Positions 18,972-48,700 of a stretch of 64,000 bases of DNA are shown piece after piece. Origin of the DNA: Antedon mediterranea (lineage: Eukaryota; Animalia; Echinodermata); the NCBI RefSeq assembly GCF_964355755.1, contig NC_092675.1, forward strand, positions 1,049,812 to 1,113,811, written 5' to 3'. The position numbers and the translations under genes were made by a program. The first letter of the stretch is position 1. The number at the start of each line of letters is the position of its first letter. The notes under the pieces were generated by a model. It saw nothing but the letters and a program-made list of their open reading frames with translations. It made no database searches and was not told the DNA's origin.

Positions 18972-19543
18972 TTTGAATAAGCCTAAAAGGTGGATATTTA
19001 AACGACAATAAACTTCTACAGTAGGTCTCCAAAAGTCCCAGACCTATAAAATGTACGTTGTTTGGTTTCCAATACTTCGCAAAAATTGTTGAAAGTGGGT
19101 TTGGTTTCCGCCTTCAGAGATTGGTCACGTCACACACTGTTATTGTGTACACGCTTCTGCACAACAAGGGAGTCGGAAGTCGCCAAAAATCGTGTAGTGA
19201 ATTTAACTAAAATTTGGGGGACATGCTCAATACTTTTTAGGCCATCTAAAAAACTAAAGTTATTCATTTATTGAACCAGGTCGTTTGTGACCTTACTGAG
19301 GGAAATAATTATACACATCAAAAGGCTTTGTTTTAAAAAAGGTTTTTTTTTTAATGGTCCTGAATTAATGAAAAATGGAAATACCGTAGATATTTTTTCA
19401 CGGTTCTACGATAGACCTATATAATAATTAATAATATCGTAAATATGCATCAAAATATGTAAATTCAAGGTTGTTGGTGATTATTCAACTTCAGATTTTT
19501 TTTATTTTCCGCGCTTTTTAAAACTACCGTATATAACAACAGC

Positions 19544-21851
19544 CGTATCCGGATATTCACCCCCTGGACATTTACCCCCCGGACAACTACCCCCCGGACA
19601 ACCACCACCTGGACCACTACCCCCTTAGGACAACTACCCCTTTAGGACAACTACCCCCCGGACAAATACCCCCCGGACAACTACCCCCTTAGGACAACAA
19701 CCCCCTTAGGACAACTACCCCCTGGACAACTACCCCCCGGACAATTACCCCCTAGGAACAATTACCCCCCGGACAATTACCACCCGGACAATTACCCCCC
19801 GGACAATTACCACCCAGAAAACTATCCCTTTAGAACACCCTAACCACCCAGACCATTCAACAACCTGACTCTGCAACAGTGTATAATAGGAATTAATAAC
19901 TATATTTTAATTCGTTACTTTGACGAATTACTATTCATTATTGTAAACAAAAGTAAAAGATTGAACATAAATATAGCCTGGTATAAACTGAAGATCGTCA
20001 CACATGATCATAGGATAGTCGAACGTATTATATAGTACTCCCTGTATTTACTGTAAAGACTGGGATCGCTAATAATAATAATAATTTTTGCGTCAGGACA
20101 ATGCTTCGATAACCACTGGTCTTAAAAGAATTAATATTTGTCTCAAATTTGTCATATATGTATTTTTGTACACTTGAAGAATAATATCACTTTTGATATT
20201 TGACCTCAATGTTCACTCACCGAATAAACGTCGATCTTTAAATAAATTCCCCTCAAATAAACGGTGACCATGTCACTCCCATGAAACATCATATGGAATA
20301 ATCGGCGTCTATTTCCATTAGATTATACCCCCTCCCATTGAATAAACAACTTTCTTCCAATAAATGTCCACCTAAAAACCACCTAAACAATAAACAGCCC
20401 AGGCCGTTTTTTCAATAAATACGGTACTTTAAATCTAGCACATCTAGGGTCTAGCGTGCTGTTAAACAGAATAATCGGTTAAAAACGGGTGTTTCGAAAC
20501 TAGAGACCCGAGACCAGAGACCAGAGACCCAATACGAAAAGGGAGACCTAAATATACGAAAAGGGAGACCCACGTACGAAAAGGGAGACCCCACTATACG
20601 AAAAGGGAGACCCCACTATACGAAAAGGGAGACCCTAATATACGAAAAGGGAGACCTAAATATACGAAAAGGGAGACCCAATTATACGAAAGGGAGACCC
20701 AAATATACAAAATGGGAGGCCCAAATATACGAAAAGGGAGACCCACTATAAGAAAAGGGAGACCCACTATAAGAAAAGGGAGACCCCACTATACGAAAAG
20801 AGAGACCACACTATACGAAAAGGGAGACCCTAATAATATACGAAAAGGGAGACCCAAATATAGGTCTCCATTTTCGTATTGGGTCTCGTTTCAGGTCTCT
20901 GGTCTCGGATCTCTAGTTTCGAAACACCCGTTAAAAACAATTTCATTTTTACAGAAACCGGTCCTATATATTTGTCTACTTTTGGATGGGGGGGGGGGGG
21001 TAGTTGACCGGGGGTAGTTGACCGGGGGGTAGTTGTCCGGGGGTTTGTTATCCTAAGGGGGTAGTTGTCCTAAGGGGGTAGTTGTCCGGGGGTAGTTGTC
21101 CTAAGGGGGTAGTTGTCCGGGTGGTAAACATCCGGGGGGTAACTGTCTAGGGGGTAGGTGTCCTAGAACCGAAAAGGGAGACCCCCTATACGAAAAGGGA
21201 GACCCCACTATACGAAAAGGGAGACCCTAATATACGAAAAGGGAGACCTAAATATACGAAAAGGGAGACCCAATTATACGAAAGGGAGACCCAAATATAC
21301 AAAATGGGAGACCCAAATATACGAAAAGGGAGACCCACTATAAGAAAAGGGAGACCCACTATAAGAAAAGGGAGACCCCACTATACGAAAAGAGAGACCA
21401 CACTATACGAAAAGGGAGACCCTAATAATATACGAAAAGGGAGACCCAAATATAGGTCTCCCTTTTCGTATTGGGTCTCGTTTCAGGTCTCTGGTCTCGG
21501 ATCTCTAGTTTCGAAACACCCGTTAAAAACAGATGATTTCATTTTTACAGAAACCGGTCCTATATATTTGTCTACTTTTGGATGGGGGGGGGGGGGGGGG
21601 TAGTTGACCGGGGGGTAGTTGACCGGGGGGTAGTTGACCGGGGGGTAGTTATCCTAAGGGGGTAGTTGTCCTAAGGGGGTGGTTGTCCGGGGGGTAGTTG
21701 TCCGGGGGGTTGTTATCCTAAGGGGGTAGTTGTCCTAAGGGGGTAGTTGTCCGGGGGGTAGTTGTCCGGGGGGTAGTTGTCCTAAGGGGGTAGTTGTCCG
21801 GGTGGTAAACATCCGGGGGGTAACTGTCTAGGGGGTAGGTGTCCTAGAACC
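19544..21851 (-). mobile_element. Non-autonomous Mutator-like foldback element, copy 2 (2308 bp), inverted relative to copy 1
   Basis: Near-identical reverse complement of 10676-13011, differing mainly in subrepeat number and G-run length. It has its own distinct 9-bp TSD AACAACAGC (19535-19543 / 21852-21860). Confidence 0.92.
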
Positions 21852-28576: not shown

Positions 28577-31500
28577 TCACTTTTTGGCAAAGTATAATTT
28601 TTTAGTTAACATTGACATAAAGCATGGTACCTGCTTCTTGCCAATCATTGCAGGATCCCTACAGGCCTTTACTGACCGCTGAGAAACAATATGGTTGACC
28701 AACAGAAGCATGTCTGTAAATTCCATCGTCGTTCCGTAGCGTTCCATGACAAATGAAAGAGCTTGAATGAACCAAGAACCATAGGCTGTGTCTCGGTGCG
28801 AGTAATATCCTACAGTCAATGGAAATAGCGAAAATCATTTTAAATAAAAATAATGTAACTACGTATAATATATAATATATACATTGATGAAGGCGTGTTG
28901 CCCGAAAGCTCTGCTAACTTTTCTGGCTGTTTTACTTTATCGTTTTGATTTAGCTTTTCGCTTTTATTTTGAATCTCCATTGAGATCCAGCCACTGATAC
29001 CCACAACATTGTCATTTTTTCAGTATTTTGCCTTTGAATTTAAGTATATGTATAATGTTATTGTTAACATATTGTTTATAGTCAAGCCACTAAGTAAAAC
29101 AACAATGTGTGCTTGCCCTATTCAAGGGATATTTAACTTATGAAGGAAAAACTAAGAGATATTAGTTTTAATTAAAAAGCTCAACAAGAAACATATTGAA
29201 AATTAGGACTGTATCCAATGGTGTAACGTATGGGGCAAAGGTCCCTGGTTTAGCACTCCTAAGGTCCTTTAACTCGTTGCATTGGGGCTGTTCATACTCT
29301 CTGGGGCCCCTAGGATCTCACCACTGTGCATATCTCATTAATGCATATGATTTTAAATTGATAGGTAGAGGTTTACCTTCAGCTACAGAGTATGCTAAAA
29401 GAAAGTCAGCACCAGCAGGTACAGTGGGCCTTGGGCCTGCATCTGCTACATCAACATCCATTAACTCTACATCATCAAGACCATCCATAGCATCTATACC
29501 TATCTCATGGTCCTCACCACGACATGCCTTTAAAATAAACAATAGTATATATTAAATTGTTGTTAAAGTTTGTGCTCCAAATTTTAAACCTCATATCTAT
29601 CATTGTGTAATTGCATATTTAAGAACAATATTAATTTTCATTAATGTTTATTTATGGAGTATTGAGATGTACTAATTTACACAACCTCTGTAGTGGATGA
29701 CATAGTTAAGAAATCATTTGTCCACAACTCTATACATGTTTCCAACTCATCATTTCAAAGATAGTTTGTTTTATTCCTTCTGTAAATATAACTTGTTTAC
29801 TAATTTCATTATAAATCTTCTACTAACCTGTATTAAAAAAATCTTTGGTTTTCCAACTAAACTTTTGCACTTTTCTCCTCTAAAACGGTCGATGAGTTCT
29901 TGTAACTTAAGTACACCATCATAAGCATAAATGACATCGTTATCACCATGAGTAAGGAAGACGCATACAAAGCAATCTGAATCTGCATGACTCTGTAATG
30001 ACACTAAAAATACAAATTGTTGTAAAGTAAAATTTCTGATATTAAAGATTTGATTTCTAAAGGAAAATTCTTAAAATCATTAAACAACCAGTAATTACTG
30101 TATCTATGCCCGGTATAGGACATGTCTTCTCAGGACTATAAACCGTAGGCCAGTGTACAAATCTAGCTTATGTGAACTTTAAAGAACCTAGTACATCTTA
30201 CGAGACAAGTAGGGGTTACCCCGGTGTACTAGTACATCACAGGCACTGATCACAACTGGGCCCTCTGGGAGACCAGTCTTTGACTGAAGAAGTCGCTCAG
30301 TATAAATAAAATATTTCAATTTTAATACAATTTAAAAAAAAACACTTAATTATTAAAATAATAGTATGGATGATGAACACAAACAATGATTGTTTTTTCC
30401 CGATGGATTAATGAAAAAATTGCCAACTTGTAGTACTAGTGTCGTACCATTTTTTAGGGCATCCCATAACTGCACGACTGTTAAATCTTGATGAACTTTG
30501 ACATCAAATTGAAGCTTTGTGAGTCGTTTTTTCAAGTTGTCGACATCATGTTGAGTTCCTCGTCTACGTGGCATTTGCGTGCCCAGATGAAATTCTTCAT
30601 GATTGAAAATGACAGCAACACCACGTTTTGGATGAGACATATTGTAGCTTAATAAATTCTTGTCAATTCCCTGTAAAATACTAAATAATAATTTATAAAA
30701 CATGTTATATAAATGTTTATTTGTTCAACAAGATGTATAATAGAGACCGTATAATATAGGCCTAGTATATAGCCTCTCTCTAGCTAGGGCTAGTACTGTA
30801 GTGAAATACCCCTCCGCTTAATGGTTCGGTCCACCGAGTGACCCGAGGTCATGTGTGCCGTCCCGGAGAGACCTGCGCTCTCTTGAGACTTGGACGACAT
30901 AGGATAAACACGGGATATAGACACCGCACATCGGAGGTACACTGAGTGTTTTACCGTGTTCGATATCAAGACAGAGACAGCATACCGTAGTATTTACTGT
31001 TGACAAAGGTTGGGTGATGACCTCCCAAGAGACCAGCCCACCACGACAGGTAAGCCACACTACTTTCTGCTAGTCTGATTATACTCTCGGCCGTTTTACA
31101 ACATTGGCGCTGCGAGCAAAAACGTAAGCGATTAACGCCAAGTTAATTAGTTTTGGCATAGAGTTCGTTCCCACACCTGTGGGGCGACAACGGTTCGAAT
31201 TTCCCGCTGCATTTTCACAATTCCGCACGGTGTAGACTCACCGCGATTAGTGAATTTAATAAAGTGCACGGATTTTTTGTTCGACTCTGTAGGCGCTACT
31301 TGCACTGCGTTATTGCTTTTGTACCGTAACTTCATCAAGTGAATCCCATTGAGAAGTTAGACTGACAATACAGAAGAATTATAGACTGAGTATTATTTTG
31401 TTGTGGGTTTTGTTGATATAGTAAAAATATAAACTATAATAGAAAGAGTTATTTCAGTTGTTTTTAGTTCAAACGTTGTGGAAATTGATTCAACGGGCGA

Positions 31501-34500
31501 CTCCTCCATTGTGTGTTCTTTTGAATTCCTAAGACACCTGTGGGCGGATTCCGCGCATTCCATTAGTCTCATTTGCATATCGTTTTGTGTTTAGCAACTG
31601 TGATACATTTTAATTTACTATTGTCTTTCAGAAATAGAGGTTATTTTGAAACTTTGTTTATTACGATATTTTACCATTACATTTTACGTATACTCTTTGT
31701 AAATTGGGATACGTTTCCTGTGGGGTAGAATAGGTATAATCAGCAGTCAATATATACAATTTGAATCCCTATTGATATAACACTTTGGTTTGACCTTGAA
31801 TTGTTATTTAGAGTGCACTTGATTACATAAATATGCCTCCAAAAGCCAGACTGATATCTATAAATTTCTGCGACGTTACAGACTTACTCCTGGTGCCTGG
31901 TATAGGTGCTGCACGTGCTCAGAAATTATTAGACTGGAGAGGCCGTTATGGGAATATCACCCCGGTTAACATTGGGGATATAAAGGGTTTGGGGAAAACC
32001 AAATTTTCCAGATGGTTCGACTTCACCCCAAATCCTAAGCGGGGAGGGATTATCACCACAATGAACGCTGTGACATACTTAGTGGATGCACGGAACGAAA
32101 CTAGGGCTGCCAGTTTAAATCCCGCTAACGGGGACTCCACGGTTCACCGTGAGCCTCGGGGAGATGAACGGGACCGATCGTACTTCCCTGCCAACCCGGG
32201 ACCGGGACACGAATTTAGATCCCCTACACTCCCGGAGGTCCCCTTACGTTCCGAGGTTGAGGAAGACCGCCCTCTTTGCGATGGTAATGGTACACCATTT
32301 AACCCGTTTGTAGGTAGCCCGGAGGGAGTTGTCCCATCCCATATGCCCGGTCAATACTCCTATGTGGATTCCTGGGGGGAACCGGAATATCGGGACACCC
32401 CTCCTACACTTTCATCTCACGGTACACGAGTAACATCTACTGTTAGTCCTGGAATTACGCCTGTGTATTCTAGGGCCCAGGCTACTCCTCAGGCTGAACA
32501 GAATGTGAGGGGTAACACTCCCGTGGTTACTGCTAGCACCACGTCGGCGTATACCCGGCCGCACACTCCCGTCTCTCATAGGCCCCAATACTATAATAAC
32601 AGAGGGGGTCACCCACCAGCAAGGCGGTCATCTAGAGAGGTACCTCAGAGACGCCAAGTTGATTGGGCGTATGGAAACCATGACCGTACGTATTACGGTG
32701 GCAGCGAGAGTGAGGGAGAAAATGCCCAACCATCATTTCACACCGACCACGATGAATTCTTGGCGTCCTTCAGAGAGTTCTTACGGTCCACCGAGCGTAG
32801 GGCTCCTAGACGACAACAACAACAACAACCACATTTTAGGTCAAAGGACATTCCTAAAAATCTGTCGTTTAGCGGGAGGGACAATTGGGTTTTATTTAAG
32901 CAGCGGTTCCTCAACTATGCTGACGAATATGGCCTCAGCGATAGGGGAATGCGCGACGCTTTTCAATGGTGCGTTACAGGTATTGCGGCAGATTACTTCA
33001 TAAACCTAACTCATATGAACCGAGATTTATCTTTCAGGCATATTATAGGGGCTTTTGACGAGCGCTTCAAGGCTGAGGAATTACCTGAGGTCTTGCAAGT
33101 GAAGTTGGAGGCGGCCAGTCAACAGGAAGGTGAATCCATTGAAGATTGGAGCGACAGAGTACTCACCCTAACGAGGAAAGCTTTCCGTGAACTTCCTAAA
33201 GACTGGATTCATCGGAGAGCAGTCGTGAAATTTTGCGTGGGTTGTCTCGATGCCGAGGCCGGTCAGTATATTCTACACCAGAATCATACTACTTTGGTGA
33301 GAGCACTGGCAGCCTACGAAAAATACATTGGTTTTAGGGAACTTTGCAATCGAGGAAGAAAGGGGCGACCAAGGGAGCAGGTGAGGCCGCACGTACGATT
33401 CGCAACTGTGCCTGACCGACGACATCACCGGTCGCCGCCCTCGTATACAATAGAGTCTTCTGAGAGTGGAGAGGAGGTAGAGGTTCGACAGGTTGGAAAG
33501 GGTTGGACTCGCCCGGCGAGCCTCGAGAAACCTGTTGTACCTGGGCCTGTGGACAGGAAGGATCAATACGATCGCAAGGGTCCTCCACGGCCGACTCCAC
33601 CTCGCACCGAGACCAGGATGGAAGCGGTCGAACGACAAGTGGGGCAGTTGAACACGAACGTCGACCAGTTGACGACCAACGTCGGCCATTTGATGACCAG
33701 GTTTGACAGTCTATTAACGGCCTTGCATCCAACACCTACATCACCACCATCGCCGGGTAGACGGTACTCAACCTCGCCCCCGAGAGTGTGTTTTGAGTGT
33801 CGAGAACCGGGTCATTTCAGGAAGGACTGTCCTAAGCTAGCCCGACAAGTTCGACAGATTGAGTCGGAAGGTGACCAGTCGTCAAACTAGACCAGGTTGG
33901 AAGCGCAGCCCAGCTCCCCAACCTGTCACCTCGTCCGGGCTCAGGTCTTGTAACGGGTAACAAAGGTAAGTATAAGGGTAGTAAGAATAATGGTAAGGAT
34001 AATAAGAGTATTGACAATCCCCGTGATAATGGTGATAACATTAATAGAAATATTAGTCACATTAACACGGGTCAAGATAATACTAATAATTCTTTCATTA
34101 CTATGAGTAATCTTTCAGAGACAACGCTGCGATCAGACCTGCTCCCAGGTGGCGGAGACCCACCCGTGGGCACTACTTCGACGACCAACGAATCGTTGGA
34201 ACCTCGGGGTGCTGCGGGGTGGACTCGGCCAGTGGAAGTAGCCGGCACCGCAGACGAAACGGAAGAACCAATCGTTATCAATCGAGTACGATCCAACCGA
34301 GCCTTATACACCACGGTCTACGTGAATCAGACTGAAGTAACAGCTGTGGTGGACACGGCTGCGGACCGGACAATACTCTCGGATAACGTATACTCTCGTT
34401 TAGTTCCTAAACCACCGATTGTGGCCAAGCTTAACTTTACCCTAGCGGGTAGAGGGACATCGATGCCTGGTTACAAGGTGGGACCTATTCATTTTAGGCT

Positions 34501-37500
34501 AGGGTCGGAATCCTACACCGAATTTTTCTATGTAGCACCGATTCACGATGAAATGCTGTTAGGTCAGGATTTTCTGGTAAAAAATGGGGCCATGGTAGAC
34601 TGCGGACAACTGCTGTTAACTGTAGGTGCAAGCACAGTCTCTCTGCGGGGAAATCGGGAACCCGAACCCCCGAGAACCGCTCGTGTTCTTGTCGCAAAGC
34701 GTAGAGTGATACCACCTCACTCTGTAGTGCACGTCCAATGTCAACTTTCACCTAACCATTTACCTTTACCAGATTTCTTTATAGATCCAGAGATCAACGC
34801 TTCTGTGGCAATTCCAGCTACCACACATCGAGGCCTGCGTATTCCGCACCTGTGCGTGGTCAACACATCGGACATGTACGTCACCCTGAAACAGGGACGG
34901 AACATTGCAACAGCCACAGAAGTAGATCAGGTGGAGGAGGATGGAAAAGCCAACGCTGCCGATGTATGTTCCGCAGCCAGTCATGATAAACCTGTCTCGT
35001 CGGCAGTACCCATGCATCTGGTGGACATGCTAGAAGCGTCCCGTGCTGATCTCTCCGACTCCGAATTCGCACAATTGTCTTCTCTTATCATTCAACATCA
35101 AGAAGCCTTCGCTTCGCATCAGTTCGATATTGGTACGTTCAAGGATATTGAGCACACCATAGATACGGGCAAGGCTCCGGCTATCAAGCAACGGCTCCGG
35201 CCAACGCCGATTCGCTTTGCTGGCGAAGAGGAGAAGGAGATAAAAAAGATGCTCCAAGCTGGAGTGATTCAACCCTCCATCTCAGAGTGGGCATCACCAC
35301 CAGTCCTGGTGCGGAAGCGTGACGGCTCCGTGCGCTTCTGCATAGACTATCGAGCACTGAATAACATCACCATCAAAGATGCCTATCCGTTGCCGTTAGT
35401 AAGGGACTGCATAGATACGTTATCTGGAAACATCTGGTTCTCCAAGCTTGACGCCCTCTGGGGATACTGGCAGATCCCGATGAAGGAGGAGGACCAGAGG
35501 AAAACTGCGTTCATTACCAAGCATGGTTTGTATGAATTTGTCAAAATGCCATTTGGTCTTTCAAACTGCCCGGCTACGTTTTCCCGTGCCATGGGGTTAG
35601 TGCTACGAGGTTTGGTATGGGACGTCGTACTAGCATTTCTGGACGATATCGTCGTGCTGGGAAAAACCTTCGAAGATCACCTGAACAACTTGACCACTGT
35701 CCTGGGGAGATTTAGGAATGCTAACCTTAAACTAAAACCCAAAAAGTGTGTTTTTTTTCAGAGAAAGGTAGAATTTCTTGGACGCATCGTCGGTGACAAC
35801 TCTTTCACAGTCTCCGACACGGATGTGGAAGCCGTCCAGAACTGGCCCACGCCAACCAACCTGCGAGAAGTACAACAGTTTCTTGGTCTGGCTAACTACC
35901 ACCGGGAATTCATCAGTTCTTTCGCCAACCTGGCTGTCCCGTTGTACCGTCTGACTGAGAAGGGAGTCCAATTTGTGTGGGGAGAGGACCAGCGGATCGC
36001 TTTTGAATCTCTCAAGAACGCATTGGTTCAACCTCCTGTCTTGACGTTGCCCAACATCCGGGATGAATTCATACTAGATGTGGACGCATCGGACCACGCC
36101 ATCGGCGGTGAATTGCTGCAGATGCAAGAGGGTAAGGAACGAGTAATCGCCTACGCTAGCATCCGGCTCACCGCCGAACAGCGCAACTACTGCACAACTC
36201 GTAAGGAGTTGCTGGCCATCGTGTACATGACCCGGCATTTCCGCCACTACCTGCTGGGCCAGCCTTTCCGGGTAAGAACCGACCACAGCAGTCTAACTTG
36301 GCTCCTTAATTTCAAAGGTCCCCAAGGACAACTAGCTCGTTGGATGGAGGAGCTTAGCCAGTATACCATGGTAGTCGAGCACCGGCGAGGTAGGTTACAC
36401 ACCAATGCAGACGCGCTTTCTCGTCTTGGGGGGTGTGAGCACGGCACCATCACTCCGGACGACCTGCCCTGTGGGGGTTGCACCTACTGCCGTAGGACGC
36501 ATGCGAAATGGGCACGGTTCCGGGAGGATGTCGACGACGTCGTACCCATCTCCCAGATTCGACAGGCAAGTAGAGGAGTGGGTAGTGAGGGGTTTGTATG
36601 GGACCCGGGTGGTCGAGCGACCGTGGAAGTAACCCGGGCTCCCAATGGATTAACGAATATTTGTGTATTACAGGATGGGGATATGGTCACATCGATTCAG
36701 CCGGAGACACCGACCGCCCGATGTTGGGGGTACTCCGTCAGCGAACTCCGGGACCAACAACGTAAGAATGCTGATCTCCAGCCTATCCTGCGGTGGTTGG
36801 AGCGCCAAGACGACCCCTCAACCAATGAGCTGTTCCTCTTCAGCCCGAGCACGAAGTTCTTTTGGTTGAATCGAGACCGTCTTCATCTGTCCGACGACGG
36901 CATTCTGTTCCTGAAGCACGAAACGTCGGGCGAGCGTCTTTTGGTACTGCCGAGGGGTTTGCAACTAGTTGCCCTGCGACTACACCACGACCTCCCTTCG
37001 GCTGGACACCAAGGCATCGCCCGAACCCGTTTTCGTCTTAAGGAAAAGTTCTTTTGGTATGGTATGTCCAGGGATATCGGAAGGTATGTAGCCAACTGTG
37101 AAGTGTGTAACCGCAATAAGAAAACCGGCCGTAAAGCCCGGTATCCCTTAACAAACTTTCATGCAGGTACACCCATGGAACGGGTACATATCGATTTTCT
37201 TGGGCCTTTGCCTAAAACCAACATGGGCAATGTATACATTCTCATGATGGTGGACCAATTCACTAAGTGGGTTGAAGCGAGCCCACTTCCTTGTCAGACA
37301 GCGGAGGTAACGGCCCGAGCCGTGGTAGGGAATTTCTTCTCCCGGTTCGGGATGCCTCTGGAACTCCACTCTGATCAGGGGAGTAATTTTGAAAGTGAAT
37401 TATTTAGTTCTTTATGTAAAGTTTTACAGATCCACAAGACCAGGACCACCAGTTACCGACCCGCCGCCAACGGCCAGGTGGAGCGATACAACCGGACCCT

Positions 37501-40500
37501 GATGGATGCTGTGAGATGTTTTGTAGGCCGGCAGCAGAAAGATTGGGATGTGTTTCTACCACAGCTAACTGGAGCCCTCCGGGCGACGGTGAATCGCTCG
37601 ACGGGGTACACTCCCAACATGCTGATGCTCGGACGAGAGATCAACCTTCCGGCCGATCTCATGTTTACAGCTAGCGACCCGCCAACTGCACGAGCACCCG
37701 ATAGCTACGTGACCGCTCTCACACAATCAATCCGTGAAGCACACGACATAGCACGGGCTACTCTGGGGGAAACGCAGCGACGCATGAAGAGAGACTACGA
37801 CCTCCGAGTCCTCTCACGCCCCTACGACCGTGGGGATAAGGTATATGTGCTAGATAATAGCCAACCGAAAGGTAAATGCAAGAAGCTGTGTCCTCCTTGG
37901 AAGGGACCCGGCATCATCATCCAAGTTATCTCTCCGGGACTGTTCCGGGTCAAGCTGAGGAACAAAGTGATGGTTTTGAACCATGACAAGCTCAAGCCCT
38001 GTCACGACCGGCAGCTCCCGCGGTGGATAACTAACTATCATTTATCTCTTTCAGATCCGAGCGAGGAGAACGTCGACGATGCGCCGGGAACGCTATACTG
38101 TTCCTGCCGGAAGCCCTGGGCTGGGTCATTCATGATTCAGTGCGATTACTGTGACGTTTGGTACCATGGCGCCTGCGTGAATGTCTCTCCTTTAGACGCT
38201 CTGAATATCGACCGCTACAAATGCGCTAATTGCAGAGACTGAGTATCCGAGCTGAAGCGATTGTAGGGTACCATTATTTAATTGTCTCCGTATTTTTGTA
38301 TCTCCATAGGTTGTTTTCGGCGCAACCGACATCCGGTTGAGACAACAACGGCAAGTCAATGGACGGTGGCGTGCCCTGTCGGGAGAGGAGCAGGAGGAAA
38401 CCCGGCGGCGACTACTCGCATCTGAACCTACCCTAGCCCCAACGGGGGAGGTCAGTGGAGATGTGACCGGCGTAGATACTGCCCTCGAGTCGACGCCAGA
38501 ACCACCACCATCCGGCGCGCCGACCGAGGATTCACGCCCACGGCGTAAGAACCCGTGCGTGTTTCCGGGATGTAACTTCGAGGCTGTGCACAACATGAGG
38601 AGGCACGTGTGGTCCCACCACCTCCCCTCATGTTTTAAGTTACCATCGACTCCGCAAAAAATACAGACCAAGCTCTGCCTGCTGCGGAAGTACGCCGTGG
38701 AAATATTGGGTAGGCCGGAGTCCACTTTGGACGACCTGGTCACCCAGCTGAATGCGGAGAGGGCTGTTGGTCCGCATGTAGGCGTCATCGACCAGAGGAC
38801 ACTGGAGATGATGTCCGAGCTACAAGCGGCGATCGGAGGTGAGCCACCTGAGGGATTTAACCTTGTGCCACTCAACCATCCAGCGGCCCTAATCCATTGG
38901 CGCTACATGGTAGCGATGGCCCAGCGGATGGACATCACTAAGATGAGCCAGCTAGCCGCCGAAGCTGAGGCCGAGAATCCCCTCGCCCAGCCCGCCGAAG
39001 CTGAGGCCGAGACTGGCCGCGCTCAGCCACCAGCCACCAAACGTAAGACCGTAAAACGCAAGAGGAGGCTCGGGTCACCGACCCCCTCCAGGCGGGAGAA
39101 GAAGATGGTGCGGACCACGATGAGAGCGTTCGACGCCCACTTCCACCCGGACCGTTTGCGCTCTTTTCTGAGGCTGTCTCCTCGAGCCACACTGATGGAG
39201 ACCTTGCTAGCTGAACCAGCTGGAGCCCAGACAAAGCCGGTAAGACCTGTTGGGGGTGTCGCCATCTTTTGCGATCCTCCCTCTTACCCTTCAGCGGAGG
39301 AGATTCATCGCCTCCGGCGGGAGGGGTATGAGGTGGGGGTCGGGGTGCACCCCAAGAAGGACGTCTCGCCTGGTCAACTCTCCCGACTGAAGGCCTTGGT
39401 GCGCTCCGGCGCTACCCGGGTGCTCGGGGAGATCGGCTTGGATCACTCCGTTCCGGTAGCTGACTGGTTCAGGCAGGAAGAGATGCTGCGGTGCCTCCTG
39501 GCACAGGTTTTCTCACCTCGACACCATCTGGCGATTTGCCTGCACCTAAGAGGCAGTCGCAACGATCCGACGGCGGAGACGTGTTATCAGAACTGCCTAA
39601 ACATCTTGCAGATAGCACGGGTTCCAAGATGTGTACGCATTCTACTGCATAATTTCTCATCGACTGTGTTAATGGCCGATAGGTTTAGGAGTGTTTTCCC
39701 CCTGACCTATTTCAGCTTTACACGGTCGGTGGAGGGCTTCAACGAAGAGCAGAAGGAAGCGTGCCGACACATCTTCCGCATGGATGACCGTCGCCTGCTA
39801 CTGGAATCAGATGGGCCCCACTTTGCTCCTCCGGGGCAACGAGTGGGTGCACCACATCTGCTCCATCACACCGCAGTAGGTAGTCGGAAGGATCTTAGGC
39901 CAGGACGCCGAGCAAGTTCTAGACTTGACCCGGAAGAACGGCCGAGATCTGTTCCTCATGGTGTAGAGCCGACCATTCCGGCGGCCTACCAGAAGTTTTA
40001 AGTTATTTTATTATGTTATTTTTTGTAAGGTGCCAGAAGATGCACCAGATTCAGTTATCTTAGCGTTAACCAAAAGTTATTGTTTTATTTTACAGCATGA
40101 CCACCCGGGCACCGGCCCTGGCCTTATAAAATCGGGGGAAGTGTAGTGAAATACCCCTCCGCTTAATGGTTCGGTCCACCGAGTGACCCGAGGTCATGTG
40201 TGCCGTCCCGGAGAGACCTGCGCTCTCTTGAGACTTGGACGACATAGGATAAACACGGGATATAGACACCGCACATCGGAAGTACACTGAGTGTTTTACC
40301 GTGTTCGATATCAAGACAGAGACAGCATACCGTAGTATTTACTGTTGACAAAGGTTGGGTGATGACCTCCCAAGAGACCAGCCCACCACGACAGGTAAGC
40401 CACACTACTTTCTGCTAGTCTGATTATACTCTCGGCCGTTTTACAACAGTACTAGTAGTAGCCTAGCTAGGCTAGGCCTAAATGCTAATTATTAATTTAC

Positions 40501-40808
40501 TATTATTATAGACCTAGCCTAGGTCTATTAGTCTATACAGTATTACTATTATTACTATTAGTTTATCAGTTAGCAGGTATTTACCTTGGTACGTCAGAGG
40601 AAGTAGAATAATCAGGCATTAGTCCTAGGCCTGGTTGAACATTCCAACTACTGGCTGTGGCCTCAGACGCTGGGGTTTGATACCGACTTCTTACCGTAGA
40701 TGGCTGTTGTTGGTTGCTCGACGACGATGAATGAATGGAAGGACGAGACGATGCAAACAAAGCATCGTTTTCTGTTATGTGATTATCGTTCTTTGATTGA
40801 TCTGCCAT
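28577..40808 (-). CDS. CASP6: Caspase-6-like effector caspase, 5 coding exons; intron 1 hosts the LTR retrotransposon
   Basis: Exons 40808-40695 (or -40585 with the alternative acceptor at 30680), 30670-30448, 30003-29828, 29527-29377, 28809-28577. Motifs [32 protein letters not shown]|ACRG (catalytic QACRG), [26 protein letters not shown] and [17 protein letters not shown] are characteristic of caspase-6. Confidence 0.88.
28884..29025 (+). repeat. Interspersed repeat starting with a degenerate minimal hammerhead ribozyme (Penelope/retrozyme-like); second copy 63145-63296 on the minus strand
   Basis: (T)TGATGA-AGGC-GTGTT-GCCC-GAAA-GCTC-TGC, followed by ~120 bp homologous to the reverse complement of 63145-63262. 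Confidence 0.55.
30105..30310 (+). mobile_element. SINE-like repeat fragment (related minus-strand copy ~56560-56700)
   Basis: Shared core GGACTATAAACCGTAGGCCAGTGTACA...ACTTTAAAGAACC..ACATCTT..GAG..AGTAGG resembles the conserved central domains of metazoan tRNA-derived SINEs. Ends in an AATAAA/A-rich tail. Confidence 0.5.
30797..31103 (+). repeat. 5' LTR (307 bp)
   Basis: TGTAGTGAAATACC...CGTTTTACAACA; identical to 40142-40448 except GGAGGTAC vs GGAAGTAC. Contains TATA-like GATATAG (~30913), ATG at 31017 and splice donor CAG|GTAAGC at 31049/31050. Confidence 0.97.
31105..31118 (+). promoter_or_regulatory. Primer binding site, probably tRNA-Ser
   Basis: TGGCGCTGCGAGCA one base after the LTR, complementary to a tRNA 3' end ...UGCUCGCAGCGCCA of the serine-tRNA type. 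Confidence 0.75.
31833..33890 (+). CDS. Gag (685 aa): N-terminal ComEA-like helix-hairpin-helix domain, capsid-like core, coiled coil, CCHC zinc knuckle
   Basis: [46 protein letters not shown] (two HhH motifs); [14 protein letters not shown]...[14 protein letters not shown] (retrotransposon Gag/MHR-like); [14 protein letters not shown]. Confidence 0.9.
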   Translation: MPPKARLISINFCDVTDLLLVPGIGAARAQKLLDWRGRYGNITPVNIGDIKGLGKTKFSRWFDFTPNPKRGGIITTMNAVTYLVDARNETRAASLNPANGDSTVHREPRGDERDRSYFPANPGPGHEFRSPTLPEVPLRSEVEEDRPLCDGNGTPFNPFVGSPEGVVPSHMPGQYSYVDSWGEPEYRDTPPTLSSHGTRVTSTVSPGITPVYSRAQATPQAEQNVRGNTPVVTASTTSAYTRPHTPVSHRPQYYNNRGGHPPARRSSREVPQRRQVDWAYGNHDRTYYGGSESEGENAQPSFHTDHDEFLASFREFLRSTERRAPRRQQQQQPHFRSKDIPKNLSFSGRDNWVLFKQRFLNYADEYGLSDRGMRDAFQWCVTGIAADYFINLTHMNRDLSFRHIIGAFDERFKAEELPEVLQVKLEAASQQEGESIEDWSDRVLTLTRKAFRELPKDWIHRRAVVKFCVGCLDAEAGQYILHQNHTTLVRALAAYEKYIGFRELCNRGRKGRPREQVRPHVRFATVPDRRHHRSPPSYTIESSESGEEVEVRQVGKGWTRPASLEKPVVPGPVDRKDQYDRKGPPRPTPPRTETRMEAVERQVGQLNTNVDQLTTNVGHLMTRFDSLLTALHPTPTSPPSPGRRYSTSPPRVCFECREPGHFRKDCPKLARQVRQIESEGDQSSN
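33881..33925 (+). promoter_or_regulatory. Probable -1 ribosomal frameshift signal joining gag and pol
   Basis: The pol frame is -1 to gag and open only from 33875 (after TGA 33872) through to ATG 34103. G_TCA_AAC_TAG is followed by the hairpin CAGGTTGGAAGC...GCTCCCCAACCTG. Confidence 0.7.
33884..38242 (+). CDS. Pol: aspartic protease, RT, RNase H, integrase, C-terminal PHD finger (first ATG 34103)
   Basis: AVVDTAAD (PR), [22 protein letters not shown] and LAFLDDIVV (RT), [26 protein letters not shown] (RNase H), [38 protein letters not shown] (IN), WKGP, then [31 protein letters not shown]...YKCANC (C4HC3 PHD). Confidence 0.96.
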   Translation, partial: KLDQVGSAAQLPNLSPRPGSGLVTGNKGKYKGSKNNGKDNKSIDNPRDNGDNINRNISHINTGQDNTNNSFITMSNLSETTLRSDLLPGGGDPPVGTTSTTNESLEPRGAAGWTRPVEVAGTADETEEPIVINRVRSNRALYTTVYVNQTEVTAVVDTAADRTILSDNVYSRLVPKPPIVAKLNFTLAGRGTSMPGYKVGPIHFRLGSESYTEFFYVAPIHDEMLLGQDFLVKNGAMVDCGQLLLTVGASTVSLRGNREPEPPRTARVLVAKRRVIPPHSVVHVQCQLSPNHLPLPDFFIDPEINASVAIPATTHRGLRIPHLCVVNTSDMYVTLKQGRNIATATEVDQVEEDGKANAADVCSAASHDKPVSSAVPMHLVDMLEASRADLSDSEFAQLSSLIIQHQEAFASHQFDIGTFKDIEHTIDTGKAPAIKQRLRPTPIRFAGEEEKEIKKMLQAGVIQPSISEWASPPVLVRKRDGSVRFCIDYRALNNITIKDAYPLPLVRDCIDTLSGNIWFSKLDALWGYWQIPMKEEDQRKTAFITKHGLYEFVKMPFGLSNCPATFSRAMGLVLRGLVWDVVLAFLDDIVVLGKTFEDHLNNLTTVLGRFRNANLKLKPKKCVFFQRKVEFLGRIVGDNSFTVSDTDVEAVQNWPTPTNLREVQQFLGLANYHREFISSFANLAVPLYRLTEKGVQFVWGEDQRIAFESLKNALVQPPVLTLPNIRDEFILDVDASDHAIGGELLQMQEGKERVIAYASIRLTAEQRNYCTTRKELLAIVYMTRHFRHYLLGQPFRVRTDHSSLTWLLNFKGPQGQLARWMEELSQYTMVVEHRRGRLHTNADALSRLGGCEHGTITPDDLPCGGCTYCRRTHAKWARFREDVDDVVPISQIRQASRGVGSEGFVWDPGGRATVEVTRAPNGLTNICVLQDGDMVTSIQPETPTARCWGYSVSELRDQQRKNADLQPILRWLERQDDPSTNELFLFSPSTKFFWLNRDRLHLSDDGILFLKHETSGERLLVLPRGLQLVALRLHHDLPSAGHQGIARTRFRLKEKFFWYGMSRDIGRYVANCEVCNRNKKTGRKARYPLTNFHAGTPMERVHIDFLGPLPKTNMGNVYILMMVDQFTKWVEASPLPCQTAEVTARAVVGNFFSRFGMPLELHSDQGSNFESELFSSLCKVLQIHKTRTTSYRPAANGQVERYNRTLMDAVRCFVGRQQKDWDVFLPQLTGALRATVNRSTGYTPNMLMLGREINLPADLMFTASDPPTARAPDSYVTALTQSIREAHDIARATLGETQRRMKRDYDLRVLSRPYDRGDKVYVLDNSQPKGKCKKLCPPWKGPGIIIQVISPGLFRVKLRNKVMVLNHDKLKPCHDRQLPRWITNYHLSLSDPSEENVDDAPGTLYCSCRKPWAGSFMIQCDYCDVWYHGACVNVSPLDALNIDRYKCANCRD
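38310..39966 (+). CDS. ORF3: zinc-finger-like and basic N-terminal region fused to a TatD-family metallo-nuclease; probable 1-nt frameshift at ~39877 in this copy
   Basis: TatD motifs in order: [46 protein letters not shown]. The C-terminal TatD-like helix [25 protein letters not shown] lies in the +1 frame (39880-39966). The ORF is preceded by a polypyrimidine-AG acceptor at 38308-38309. Confidence 0.85.
40127..40141 (+). promoter_or_regulatory. Polypurine tract
   Basis: AAAATCGGGGGAAG immediately precedes the 3' LTR. Confidence 0.75.
40142..40448 (+). repeat. 3' LTR (307 bp)
   Basis: Direct repeat of 30797-31103 with one substitution found; followed by TSD GTAC. Confidence 0.97.
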
Positions 40809-41453
40809 GTCCAAATTTAATTGAGGCTAGTTTTGACTAGGCCTACTTGATACAGATTTAGAAAATACAGTAGGATATCATCAATCACAGAAGTGACACA
40901 CAGAAAACCGACAGAATAATACACACACAACAAAAAACAAACAATACAAATGATGTCATTAGTAAGTCTGCTCTACAATGACAGACGAACCAATTCGCGT
41001 CAACTATTATGTGTAACGCGTTACTAATTTAAAACATGATAAAACAGCATATTTAACCTTGTTTTTTCTGGTATAAAATATAAATTGATTTACCATTATT
41101 GGCATATTAATCAATGAAATAAAATGTAAATAGTTATATCATAGAACGAGGAGATTACAGTCGAGTCATGCGCAGTTCATAAAATCCAAACAAAGAAAAG
41201 ATGTGATAGAGGGCGGTTGCATGGAATAGCAGTTTTAGTTTCGTTTAGTATAGTTTTTAAATTGTTAAATTTGAATGATTTCAACAAGAAAAAGGGTAAT
41301 TTAAAAAAAAGTTTTTACCGGCGGCACAGGCGAAAAGTTTTCATTGTCAATCAGCCTTTCCTTTAGTTATAAACAGTACTTTTAGGCTCTTGGTTATCTG
41401 TTTCGCTTTTATCATGATTTGTTGTTTGTTTTTAATATTTGTTTTCTCTTTTG

Positions 41454-42741: not shown

Positions 42742-45700
42742 ATAAATTTTGAATATATAGTTTGGCAATAATCATAAAAAAGCAAGGGTGTCTATCAGGT
42801 AACACTTTCCATGTTACAATGTATAACAAAACAAAAGGGCGTTCAATAGTCCCGGTTGGGGGTACGTAATTGGGTGTGGGCGCAACAAGTGTAATTTTTG
42901 CCACAATAATGGCCACTGACTAATTTACTCAAAATTACGTAGGCTATAGCTACAGATTCCGGGGGCTGGAGATGATTCAAATGTATTCATGTTTCAACAA
43001 ATTACCGGTATGCGCGACTGTTGGCCAAACATTATTTGGAAAAATATACAAACAGTCAATACGAATATATATTCAGCTAGCGCTTCGGGAAATATATATT
43101 ATTCCCTCGAACATAATATCATTTCCTCGGGGATGTCAAATCTTATATTTAACGTCTAAGCAGTCAATATCTGTAAAATATTTGCCTGGCTCTGGTAAAA
43201 ATATGTATATATATATACTGTATACGGTACATGATTTTCTAGCAATATGTATGTATAGCCTACATTACAAGTTCCTATCTCGTTGACCTAGACATCATAT
43301 ATCGTGGGTTGCATTCCATTCTTTATTTTCGCAAATCAATTAATATCTTCCGTTTTCCCTTATATTCTCTGGGTTCTTGTTATATATTTCTATTAAATCG
43401 GTTAATTCTTTATGGTTTTCAGAAGGTTACGTTCAATGTTCAATAAAGCCGATTAAGTTCGGGGTTTCCTTATGGATTTCCGGGTGTTCAATATTAGATC
43501 TCACTTAATTCTTATCTATTGTTATACAATGTGTATTGCTATTTCATAAAACAAAATTATGAACCGCACTTTTTCACTTTTGCTGAAATCGTCAAAATTA
43601 AGAAAAGGTTTAAATTTACAGGAAAATATCAAATAATATGACAAACTCTATTAGTATTACATCCACTACCAAACCTGCATAATGATATCTTTAAAATATG
43701 ATTATTTAAATGATTTATGATTTACTTACATTTTAAGGCGTAATAGTATAGTTATATTGGGATTTTTTTGTATTTTTATTTTAGTTCGTTGATGCTGGAA
43801 AACAAGAAACCGACGGTAAGTTTTGAATAAAATGTTTTAACAACTTTGTTTCGTCATTTATTACTCAAATGTGTCACATACACAAACAGTTATTATGTGA
43901 GTGTAGGCCTACACATTCTATAACTTACGACACATATTAAAATATTCAGTATACTGTAATATAGTTCTAAAGTACTTTGTTAAATTATTTTGGAAACACA
44001 AATATCAAAGTTTCTCCAATTAATAAAATGGTTCTTTCTTGACTTACAATTCTTCTGGTCATGAATTTCATAGATGAATTATATCGTAGTTTAAACAGAA
44101 GATCGCCTGGGAACCCACGACCACCAATTAAACCGAGAGTACCACATCGTCGCCAAACAGATAGACCGAGACCCAGACCAAGATACCCTATAGCGACCTC
44201 ACCACCTCCTCCTCCTCTACCCCAAAAAGGTAGTGAAAAGATCAATGATTTCAGCACATTGCACCTCGGAGTTTACACATATCAGGCGTTGACGGACGGC
44301 TGTGTGTGCAAACTCCGGTATTTTGCTAAGGTGATGAGATTAGTTTGCCACTATAGTGAGATTATTTATAGGACTGGAATATCATTTCATTTACATACAC
44401 TTATGGTCCTGAAGTCAGAACATTGCAGCTTACGCATCTACATTTGTGATCACGTTTCGTCTTCGATTATAGTTTAGCTTTCAAACGAATTTCATATTAA
44501 AATGTTGTTTGTATACTCCCAATGTCCAAGCTAATAGCAACAATATTCAGCACCAATGTTATTAGACAATAAAAATAACAGTAAACATTTATAGATTTAG
44601 AGACAAAACATGTACGGTAATAATAACAATAGCAGTGAAATCGTTTGGTATAATAATGACATTTATATAATTTGCACATGTAAAATACTTTTCTCTAAGT
44701 CCTCAACTACAGTAGAAGTGAAATCGAACTTCTAATGTTGGCCATATTTTTTTTTCAAAGCTGTTAGGAACCAAAATAGGAATGCTAATGCTGATGAATG
44801 GTCAACGGAAATAAGGTATTTATTATATTATGTTATCATAGCTAGTAACATAACTAGAATAACAATTTTGATGCTCGTGTGACTCCATTCTGTAATCATA
44901 TAGTCCTAACTCCTAACTCTCAAAATTTATTAACTGGACGTGTATTGTAAACAAAAATTGTCACATCTTGAGAATTAGGAAAACATGAATCTGCGTATTA
45001 CGAAACATTTAAACTACATTTTTTGGTTGACATTTTAGATTAGTTGATGGAGAAAGTGACAACATTGGTCGTGTTGAAATTCGTGCAGAAGTCAAGCCTG
45101 GTAAAATAAAATGGGGGAAAGTATGTCATGATAAATGGGAACAAGAAGATGCAGACGTTGCCTGTCGACAGTTAGGATTTTCACGGTAAATAACATGTAA
45201 ATGATTACTCCATGCTCTGACACGCGTGTAATATTCGTGCGGATTTTGTATACATCCATACAGCGAGGAGCCCTTTAGCACTCGTTTTAGCAAGCATGCA
45301 ATGTTTCGACATGACACTCGCTTCTCTAACATTTCTTTTTACAGTAGTTGAAGACAAAAATTGTACATTGTCTCATCGCTTCTTTTAAAGTGTCTTCATC
45401 GATCAAAACTGTCTTTTATAGGGGTGCAAAGAAAGTCATTAAAAATGCAGAGAGAACATTTGGGCCAGGCAAACTTAATTTCTTTATGGATGACGTCGAG
45501 TGTTCTGGAACCGAAGAAGCTTTACAGCTTTGCACATTCGGAAAGAAGGGTAGTAATAAGTTCGGTAGAGGTAATTGCAAGGATAAGAAAGTCAGGACTG
45601 CCGGGGTCGAATGCTGGATCAACCAGCTAACAAGTATGTGTAACTAAAACTACTATTGATTTATTATTTTCAAAACAGTATTTCAGCAGCAACAAACATT

Positions 45701-48700
45701 TCGTCATAGTAGGCCTACGAGAAGTGAGTTTCCAATGATAATCATTTTTAATATGACACTGGACTGAAATACAAGTGTTCATATATCTGCTAGCTCTATA
45801 ATGTACCGTATTTATTTATTTTTATCAAAAAGTATGTACAATTTTGTTTGCAGCTCCAGCTCCAGATATGCTACACAAATTCGCTAAATTTGCCAACGCA
45901 GCAATTCCAGCAAGCAACAACATACTAATAGAAAACATGGATCCCGGAGCATGCGCATTAAGATGTATACGAGAGCAAAGCTTCACGTGCAGATCGTTTG
46001 ATTTTGACAAAACAAAAGAGAGATGCTGGTTAAGTGAAGAAAACTCACGATCGGTTTCCTTGAGTTTCAGTTATCGAGACAATCCTTACGATTATTATGA
46101 ACGAATTGATATAGGTATGTATTAATTAGTGTGACTTCTTGGTCAACATTTATATTTAAACTGAATATATGTGTGGAATAGAAGCGTAATGTGTTATTAT
46201 ATGATCTGATGAAACAAGGCTTGAATATTAACTCAGAATCAAATGCTTTACAGTTAACATTTCAATATATACAGTACATATAGTACTATGTATTTCCATA
46301 ATATTACTTCCCATTAACTTGTAAAGAAAATCTTCGTTTTATATTTATAACTGTAGTAAAGTTTCTGTCAGACTTTTATAAGTGACAATGACTTGCTGTT
46401 GGTATGGATAATTGAAATAACTAAAATAAAAACGTCATAATTACACATTGCCTTACATTATTTATGGATGATACAATTAGTAACAAACTTTTATATAACT
46501 TAACAATTTTCTTTTTTAGGACCTGTATCATCTTTTCAAATTGTACCCAATTCTGCGTTGCCAGGTCAGAATATGATAGAATATCGCAATACTATGCTAG
46601 AAAAGTGTGCTGAACTTTGCCTCGCTGCTGCGTTTCAATGCGCATCTTTTGACTTCTCACGTAAAACAAGCCAGTGTTGGTTAAGCAGTGCAAATCGTAC
46701 AACGGCGAGTGTGCCACTACGGAGTGATTATCCGGACAACCCGTATGATTATTACGAACGCAAAGGAACATGTTTGTATTACTTTTAGCATTATTTTTAT
46801 ACTATTATAACAAACTCATATTCAATAGTTGGATGGAAATCTACCGTATCTAATACGATATACACCTTAGTTTCTCCAACTTTTCCAAACTGCTGATTTT
46901 CTAAATGACTTTGAAAACAAGATGAGATGCGCCTTTAGTGCAGCGCATATACATCTGAATCCCAAAGGTATAAAGTATACATGTAAATCATTTGTAAGGC
47001 ATTGGAGTTTAGTGCAATGATTCATCATTTCTTTAATTCATTCCGTAAATAGGCCTACATAATTAACATATAATTTAAAATTTGTTTTCTTGCAAATATA
47101 TAATATTTTATACTACCTATACCTATTGGATAATGCAAAGACTAACCATAAGAAAGAACAAAAGTGACGCACCAACATAAGTACAAGTCCTTACCAATCC
47201 AAGAGGATCATACAAGTTATATACACAAATGTACTAAATAAAATAACTAATTTATGCATTGATCTTTCAGCTGCTCGCGAGTGCGTTGTTGGAAAAGGAG
47301 AATTATACAGAGGAAAGGCATCTATGACTGGTGGAGGACAAAGATGCGCCAACTGGCAGGATGTTGGCAATGCAGTAGACGTCAATCCTACAACATTTCC
47401 AAATACAGGTAATTCATGTTTTTGTATTACTTTAGGCAGTACAAATCAAATAAACGTTTGCATTTATCATTGTAATAAAATAAGGGTTAAGGTTTTAACT
47501 TTCAGTACAGAAAATTCAGTGACAAATAGCGAAGATTGATACAGTATATAAATGACAGATTTATTGATATGATAGCCAATCATAGCATTCTTCAATAACA
47601 CTAACATGTCCATTATTTTAATTCATGTTGCGAGTTATTATATTGAGAAAGTCCTTATTCACATCCTTTAAACGTATGTTAAACTTGCAGGACTTGGTGA
47701 CCATAATTTTTGTCGAAATCCTGATGGCGATGAAAAACCGTGGTGTTACTACTATGTGTCTTCGAGTTCTATTGCTGGTTTGCAGATCGTGAGTGGTTGG
47801 GATTATTGTAGTGTTTCTGCTTGTGGAGATCCAACAGGAAAGCCTAATATATTAACTCCTACTCAAGATATTAGTAAGTAACTGTCAATTATACATTTGT
47901 ATACACACACCTTCGTAGAAATTCCAATATTGAAAATGGCGAAACTTTTGTAATGTAATCACGAATTCGGGAATTTGAGACGGAACTTTTCTACACCCAC
48001 CATGACCAATATTTGTTAAATGTTGTTAAAAAATAAACAAAAAGCTACATTTACTGCTTGTTTCGAGTCATAAAGCATCGTAAAACTTTCCTATTTTTTA
48101 AACGTAGAATTATTATCGCTTGGCAAGACAACTGGACAAAGCAGTACAACGTCTTGGTCTTCCATTATTGGAAGTTCGGATAAGGCCGTGGATGGTAACT
48201 TGTCTCCTAACTACTATGAGGGTAGCTGTACACATACAGGTACGTCAATCCAGTTGAGTACATGTGCGAATATTTAAGCAATCAAGTGGGATATATTGAA
48301 ATAATATATAAACGTTTGCTATACTGTATATGGACAATGAAAGCAGGAACGCGTGCGGAGTTAGTAATATGCATGTACGTCTACTTAAATCAAGAATTTG
48401 ACCAAAAAGAAAATTAATTTGTCGAAGTAACAAATGTAGATGTGGAGTAATATGTGATTCTTATTATAGATCTTGAGCCGGAACCATATTGGTATGTTGA
48501 TCTCGGTGCTGAATTTAACATTGAACATGTTACAATTGTTAATAGAGCGACAAACGGTAAGAAAATACTCGTTTGGTTTTATATTCCTTCCTCATCACCA
48601 TCAAAGAGGAACGTAAAGTTTGGATCTTTCGTGTTCTTTCGAAGTTCTTTCCTCAGCGATACAAACTTGTGACTTGTTACATCCCATGATGAACATAACA

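Follow-up and report, generated by a model that had tools for sequence, protein, structure and literature searches.

A Ty3/Gypsy retrotransposon lineage of marine invertebrates with a PHD finger on its integrase and a TatD-type nuclease domain in ORF3

Contig NC_092675.1 of the Antedon mediterranea assembly GCF_964355755.1 was analysed over one stretch of 64,000 nucleotides (positions 1,049,812 to 1,113,811; hereafter the window, in whose numbering coordinates are given), which contains a Ty3/Gypsy (Metaviridae) long terminal repeat (LTR) retrotransposon on the plus strand at 30797-40448. The element is bounded by two 307-bp LTRs with TG...CA ends (5' LTR 30797-31103, 3' LTR 40142-40448) and by a 4-bp target-site duplication, GTAC (30793-30796 and 40449-40452). 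It has a primer-binding site (TGGCGC..., 31105-31117), a polypurine tract (40134-40141), and protease, reverse transcriptase (RT), RNase H and integrase in that order with their catalytic motifs, as in Ty3/Gypsy elements. An initial annotation of the window described the element as intact and very recent. The GTAC duplication and the single mismatch over 307 bp between the LTRs agree with a recent insertion, but the third open reading frame (ORF3) is interrupted by a frameshift near 39877, and the copy is not fully intact.

Similar primer-binding sites are found in five relatives. The primer may be tRNA-Ser-like; no tRNA gene for its identification lies within the 64-kb window. One clade member (L088, 5232-5245) has the primer site TGGTATCAG in place of TGGCG..., a hint of a primer switch. 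The family is multi-copy in the contigs from sequencing runs of three coded organisms. Internally deleted derivatives are numerous as well, seen as joints in contigs of runs X1 and X7 aligned to 30300-41000. Judged from its sequence, the copy is young, whereas the Ty3/Gypsy lineage of marine invertebrates to which it belongs is old.

The gag gene (31833-33890) encodes 685 amino acids, with an N-terminal ComEA-type HhH, a capsid-like region and a CCHC knuckle. The HhH (about 31845-32012, residues 5-60) is weakly similar to ComEA and EEPD1 and matches Pfam HHH_3 with an E-value of 4.6e-5, although its 23.9 bits fall under the 27-bit cut-off; zf-CCHC was also matched. The double HhH of the initial annotation fits the window copy with this reservation about its score, and in most relatives the Pfam match lies mainly over the first hairpin. 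HHH_3 matches 11 of the 12 clade Gag N-termini tested, eight of them above the cut-off. The domain may bind DNA without sequence preference, either cDNA or chromatin. An acceptor-like site in the leader ahead of gag (31615-31631) could yield a spliced gag message without the primer site. A more distant Gypsy Gag (L096, 594-893) begins with a SAP domain (E 2.7e-12) at the place of the HhH, which suggests that DNA-binding modules at the N-terminus of Gypsy Gag are swappable.

The pol frame (33875-38242) is -1 relative to gag, and Gag-Pol would be expressed by a -1 frameshift. It encodes protease, RT, RNase H, integrase and, at the integrase C-terminus, a PHD finger (38099-38233). This PHD, already seen in the initial annotation, scores above the Pfam cut-off at the Pol terminus (E 4.9e-7), and the Pfam search of Pol found no chromodomain after the integrase, the mark of a chromovirus. 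The PHD is of the PHF2/PHF8/KDM7A/BPTF type, and its closest structural relatives by sequence include CFP1 and DIDO as well. The PHDs of all six are readers of histone H3 trimethylated at lysine 4 (H3K4me3), and the aromatic-cage positions, Y/M/W with a further Y, were assigned after the structures of these PHDs. The C4HC3 ligands and the Y/M/W cage residues are present in the element.

A protein search with the integrase-PHD region returned 736 matches, and 115 of the best 120 carry a PHD; the query included the PHD and is biased toward PHD-bearing matches. In these 115, Met and Trp are always present and a Tyr or Phe precedes the first Cys in 112. The second cage position is aromatic in only about 44 of the 115 relatives, and this speaks against recognition of H3K4me3; the fourth position, the further Y, is variable. 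The PHD is likely to bind this mark. Named members in the search are from Nucella, Pinctada, Ostrea, Haliotis and Lytechinus. In one JGI protein (P0119; 1 of the 120 Pol matches listed), a clade Pol has a KptA/Tpt1 RNA 2'-phosphotransferase domain between the integrase and the PHD.

ORF3 follows pol in the sense orientation. The frame is open from stop to stop over 38310-40001 (563 codons), 95 of them upstream of the first ATG, and this upstream stretch resembles an Anneissia protein. Among named sequences, those most similar to ORF3 belong to the feather star Anneissia japonica. The encoded order is a C2H2 finger with a helical domain (38526-38981), a flexible linker and a TatD barrel (39129-39877). 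The initial annotation overlooked both the frame upstream of the ATG and the conserved domain ahead of the TatD. That N-terminal domain consists of a C-x4-C-x10-H-x4-H finger and a helical bundle, and is confidently modelled (pTM 0.87). It had 0 fold matches at E<=0.001 in the Foldseek PDB and viral searches, and the best hit of the VIA wide search, with a Z of 5.1 over 41 residues, amounts to no match. The Atlas search gave just unnamed clusters and weak C2H2 leads, with low recognition. As modelled, the domain is without a known fold match, from which fold novelty does not follow.

The TatD domain is of the group II (HxH) type. Pfam TatD_DNase matches the frame above cut-off (E 1.1e-19), and the model of the domain (pLDDT 88.8) has TatD/YcfH structures as its best Foldseek matches (E 5.7e-9 to 6l25). 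The initial annotation had credited the frame with all TatD motifs, and every metal and catalytic motif is indeed there: the window copy has the HxH, H, E, H, H and ExD residues, all eight. Among relatives of about 30% identity, all eight active-site residues are intact in 101 of 116 gap-free rows (118 aligned). At least one is lost in the other 15, as would be expected if ORF3 had no catalytic activity and served as a scaffold or bound nucleic acid, but retention of the full set across such divergent sequences makes this alternative quite improbable. The enzyme is likely to be catalytically active in the lineage, to go by its conserved residues. ORF3 has no envelope features: no membrane helix or fusogen was found in the window copy, where the maximum 19-residue hydropathy is 1.01, and the model is a soluble TIM barrel. 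An envelope function is rejected for it.

The frameshift of the window copy lies at about 39877, downstream of every catalytic motif. Beyond it the ORF3 frame is out of the TatD frame, and a TatD-like C-terminal tail continues in a different frame at 39880-39966. The C-terminal helices of the TatD are complete in frame in relatives and incomplete here, and ORF3 of this copy is probably impaired. Most contigs of other copies that span the break are shift-free there (depth 80 of 103 in run X1, 7 of 7 in X5 and 42 of 42 in X6; X9 has no coverage). Upstream of the break, 36 variants among close copies, taken from the best-supported 40 of 83 differences, comprise 25 synonymous and 11 non-synonymous changes, a ratio of 0.14-0.19. 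ORF3 is under purifying selection among close copies.

The combination of PHD and TatD is conserved across a clade. DNA context for relatives was taken from contigs of animal origin that had been assigned to bacterial metagenome-assembled genomes (MAGs), and 72 loci, 22 further contigs and the window were scanned. A TatD lies downstream in 12 of the 13 PHD-bearing elements with DNA context, and the contig of the 13th stops just after pol. Assembly G001 has 130 integrase matches, and the 10 contigs that make up the group closest to the element (62-66% identity) carry a TatD gene without exception. The PHD-bearing elements form a single clade (22 rows, SH-aLRT 99) in a quick, unrooted RT tree of 73 rows from the collected loci and proteins, with five near-identical rows omitted. 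ORF3 matches form 732 clusters at 50% identity, 347 of them at E<=1e-10, with members named from Pecten and Ruditapes; the weaker ones include cellular TatDs. The distances of integrase and TatD co-vary, with a Mantel Spearman rho of 0.80 for 13 elements and 0.67 for 12 (without L192), p 1e-4. The weight of this co-divergence is reduced by the origin of the sample, as a single assembly, G001, supplied 11 of the 13 elements. The distinct lineage of shared architecture that the initial annotation supposed is borne out by the linkage, the RT clade and the co-divergence.

A one-off capture of a piece of host sequence that does nothing for the element would suit the broken ORF3 frame of the window copy. 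It is refuted by the clade-wide linkage and disagrees with the 732 ORF3-matching clusters, the co-divergence with integrase and the purifying selection, and is scarcely conceivable. As far as the sequences reach, the architecture together with a single, old capture is very probable.

The three modules were not acquired as a single package, as the initial annotation had presented them. They appear to have been gained stepwise because, in the sister group, L093 has the HhH-Gag without a TatD and L192 has HhH-Gag and TatD without a PHD, partial sets that rule out a single acquisition. Most other sister contigs are too short for judging module content. L093 has an SGNH-like ORF (1696-2472), and GDSL/SGNH-like ORFs also lie upstream of the fused gag-pol in the sister Gypsy elements L095 (7304-8113) and L103 (399-1187); the Pfam match, E 1.5e-4, is in L103 only. 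Third ORFs of other Gypsy elements occur in L109 (8239-9879) and L113 (8652-9791), one without a Pfam match and one with C2H2 fingers. The bacterial MAGs G001, G002, G003 and G004 of GTDB (L081-L113) are rich in eukaryotic retrotransposon contigs, with 130 integrase matches in G001. Retrotransposon proteins are therefore labelled bacterial in public databases. Genomes of shellfish and echinoderms commonly contain the lineage, whose genes are annotated as uncharacterised host genes or even as bacterial MAG proteins.

The TatD appears to have a eukaryotic source. An [FY]CDP motif is present in all 16 PHD-clade TatDs and in none of 43 prokaryote-type TatDs, and human TATDN2 is the sole carrier of FCDP (C538 region) among the eight TatDs of a published alignment (PMC10085689). 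The retroelement TatDs separate from prokaryotic TatDs in the tree by a 99% branch, and two proteins with the exact Glu-Glu spacing of TATDN2 (112) lie on the retroelement side of this branch. Two points weaken this reading: sister-type ORF3 TatDs lack FCDP, and the TatD trees are quick-mode, unrooted and without named TATDN1, TATDN2 or TATDN3 sequences. A metagenome scan with the TatD alignment gave 80 loci at 22-33% identity, which have the character of ordinary cellular TatDs and serve as an outgroup only; viral contigs held two distant RT loci and three distant TatDs. The initial annotation had described TatD as a cellular or bacterial module; a bacterial origin as the default is rejected, since FCDP points to a TATDN2-like source, with which the tree is compatible. 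There is a good likelihood that the domain derives from a TATDN2-like gene of a host.

Candidate splice signals suggest that translation of ORF3 probably starts from a spliced message, like that of env. A pyrimidine tract with an AG (38280-38309) lies directly before the ORF3 frame and resembles a splice acceptor. In the 5' LTR, an ATG with 11 codons is followed by a donor-like AG|GTAAGC (31017-31055, GT at 31050). This donor follows the ATG at 31017 in phase with the ORF3 frame at 38310, and the start codon would therefore come from the LTR. The ORF3 message would arise by splicing from the LTR donor to the acceptor after pol. A GTRAGY donor is present in 8 of 10 LTR segments and in none of the 10 antisense, and in 11 of 15 elements an acceptor precedes the ATG of ORF3 by no more than 20 bases, compared with 42 of 579 control ATGs. 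Several points count against the model. The acceptor rule was set after the sequences had been seen and after a looser rule had failed its control, the latter being non-discriminating (13/15 sense, 13/15 antisense and 42/82 pol windows). In the window copy the acceptor is not followed by an ATG, and the LTR-ATG model is specific to this copy.

The explanation that we favour, with reasonable confidence, is an old lineage with an HhH-Gag, a PHD-bearing integrase and a spliced, TATDN2-derived, active ORF3 nuclease on RNA-DNA hybrids. The element would be autonomous and envelope-less, with its integrase held to active chromatin through the PHD. ORF3 would be a two-metal nuclease that benefits the element by removing the RNA of RNA-DNA hybrids; it might clear R-loops or reverse-transcription hybrids, or trim 3' ends. 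TATDN2 degrades R-loop RNA via E593 and E705 (PMC10711561), and ORF3 retains counterparts of both residues. R-loop binding by TATDN2 requires its own disordered N-terminus (PMC10711561), a part missing from ORF3. Only 28 of 117 ORF3 relatives (7% in shuffles), and none of the 23 of the sister type, have a basic cluster that might act as a nuclear signal. The last two observations are unfavourable to this function, and removal of RNA-DNA hybrids as the biological role of ORF3 is put forward tentatively. If the TATDN2-derived nuclease is real, it would connect the replication of a transposon with the control of R-loops in germ cells, in which fish depend on Tatdn2 (PMC12709183). Roles in cDNA binding, chromatin reading and nucleic-acid processing, which the initial annotation gave to the HhH, PHD and TatD, are predictions of the same kind.

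ORF3 could instead act on DNA, as a 3'-5' exonuclease or apurinic/apyrimidinic endonuclease like TATDN1, TATDN3 and YcfH that finishes or repairs cDNA or the integration gap. Its best structural and profile matches are YcfH-type group II enzymes, known for such activities (PMC10085689), and the HhH of Gag and the zinc finger of ORF3 suit DNA substrates. However, no TATDN2 chain was among the PDB matches, so the structural ranking could not favour TATDN2, and FCDP points to that protein, which has little DNA nuclease activity (PMC10711561). A DNA nuclease seems rather unlikely on these grounds. A counter-defence or competitor-exclusion enzyme, degrading host silencing RNAs or the nucleic acids of rival elements, is similarly doubtful. 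It would agree with the predicted separate message in place of a Pol fusion and with a conserved N-terminal domain without fold match, which could bind a host protein; like ideas have been raised for the DEDDy ORF3s of rotifers (PMC5408684). Yet no observation connects ORF3 with small-RNA pathways. The boldest version of the RNA-DNA hybrid reading is also on the unlikely side. It holds that an ancient mollusc and echinoderm lineage, hundreds of families strong, is directed by its PHD to H3K4me3 promoters and that TATDN2, the germ-line R-loop RNase of the host, was domesticated and joined to a zinc domain of new fold as a transposon-encoded R-loop resolvase that clears RNA-DNA hybrids at the element's own loci or at insertion sites.

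The TATDN2 comparison has likenesses and differences. Human TATDN2, YcfH and TATDN3 share with ORF3 the HxH, GExGLD, HxR, H and ExD motifs (PMC10711561, PMC10085689). FCDP is shared with TATDN2, and the C-to-E spacing is near (53 in ORF3 and 55 in TATDN2). Unlike TATDN2, ORF3 is transposon-encoded; its N-terminal domain is folded (C2H2/helical) where TATDN2 has a long disordered arm, and its two catalytic Glu are 125 residues apart, some 13 more than the 112 of TATDN2.

There is a published precedent for an enzyme encoded in place of env: the Juno and Vesta LTR elements of bdelloid rotifers have a DEDDy exonuclease or a GDSL esterase as ORF3 (PMC5408684). They are Gypsy-type, like the element, with a non-envelope enzymatic ORF3 after pol and intact catalytic residues, and the function of ORF3 is predicted in both cases. 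The element differs in having a TatD TIM barrel instead of DEDDy, a zinc-finger/helical domain, a PHD on the integrase and an HhH on Gag, and in being found across molluscs and echinoderms with vertical co-divergence with pol. The Pfam search of the element found no DEDDy or GDSL ORF3 and no dUTPase in pol, which are Juno/Vesta traits. PHDs also occur in other transposons. Ginger1 has a C-terminal PHD on a Gypsy-type integrase as here, but is a cut-and-paste DNA transposon (PMC2836005), and a CR1-like element has a PHD in a retroelement protein, but is non-LTR with the PHD in ORF1 (cited in PMC6673714). These precedents correct the initial annotation, which held that Ty3/Gypsy elements normally carry env or nothing as ORF3 and a chromodomain or nothing after the integrase.

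Chromatin readers on integrase are known from chromoviruses, with their integrase chromodomain, and from CopiaMBD, where they are likewise proposed to guide insertion (PMC6673714). The reader of the element is instead a PHF2/BPTF-type PHD predicted to bind the active mark H3K4me3, as opposed to heterochromatin or methyl-CpG in those elements (PMC6673714). A spliced message for an env-position accessory protein is described for CERV of Cer1 in C. elegans (PMC10309623) and is predicted for ORF3; errantivirus env messages are comparable. CERV, an RNA-export factor, has no sequence relation to ORF3. The MolGy clades of mollusc Gypsy elements have the same hosts, and the text and supplements of that paper, as far as searched, do not describe a PHD, an ORF3 or a TatD (PMC6238403). 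The clades are defined by RT, and the present lineage may correspond to one of them.

The literature searched, which included few subscription papers and did not extend to Repbase, Dfam and GyDB, contained no paper on a TatD in a retrotransposon or an HhH on a Gypsy Gag. The initial annotation had allowed that the domains might fail to score, that TatD, PHD and HhH might be absent from other copies, as after a one-off capture, or that the architecture might be catalogued already; none of these was found in the data and literature searched. TatD would be a new enzyme class among the accessory genes of LTR retrotransposons, accompanied by a domain without known fold.

The element is inserted at the 5' end of a caspase gene, in which four exons cover the Pfam model; the first exon of the catalytic domain lies about 125 bp away. 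The caspase gene diverges from an SRCR/PAN/Kringle gene (gene regions 28580-30672 on the minus strand and 45031-50507 on the plus strand). A donor-like site lies on the minus strand near 40697, which suggests that the element is in a 5' intron. Through the PHD, the integration complex may be tethered to nucleosomes with H3K4me3 in the vicinity of active promoters, the opposite of chromovirus targeting. A promoter-near insertion fits such targeting, but this is a single, anecdotal case, and the CpG content at the insertion site has no promoter signature; both temper the idea. If true, chromoviruses would have a natural counterpart in an element whose PHD-tethered integrase reads an active mark, and promoter targeting is checkable in existing genomes.

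Elsewhere in the window, 10676-21851 contains large nested inverted repeats with arms of 257, 610 and 1457 bp. The arms are near 100% identical and are built from short tandem units. They enclose an AT-rich stretch of 6.5 kb in which a LIM-domain exon lies at 15050-15250, and the structure has the look of foldback-type elements.

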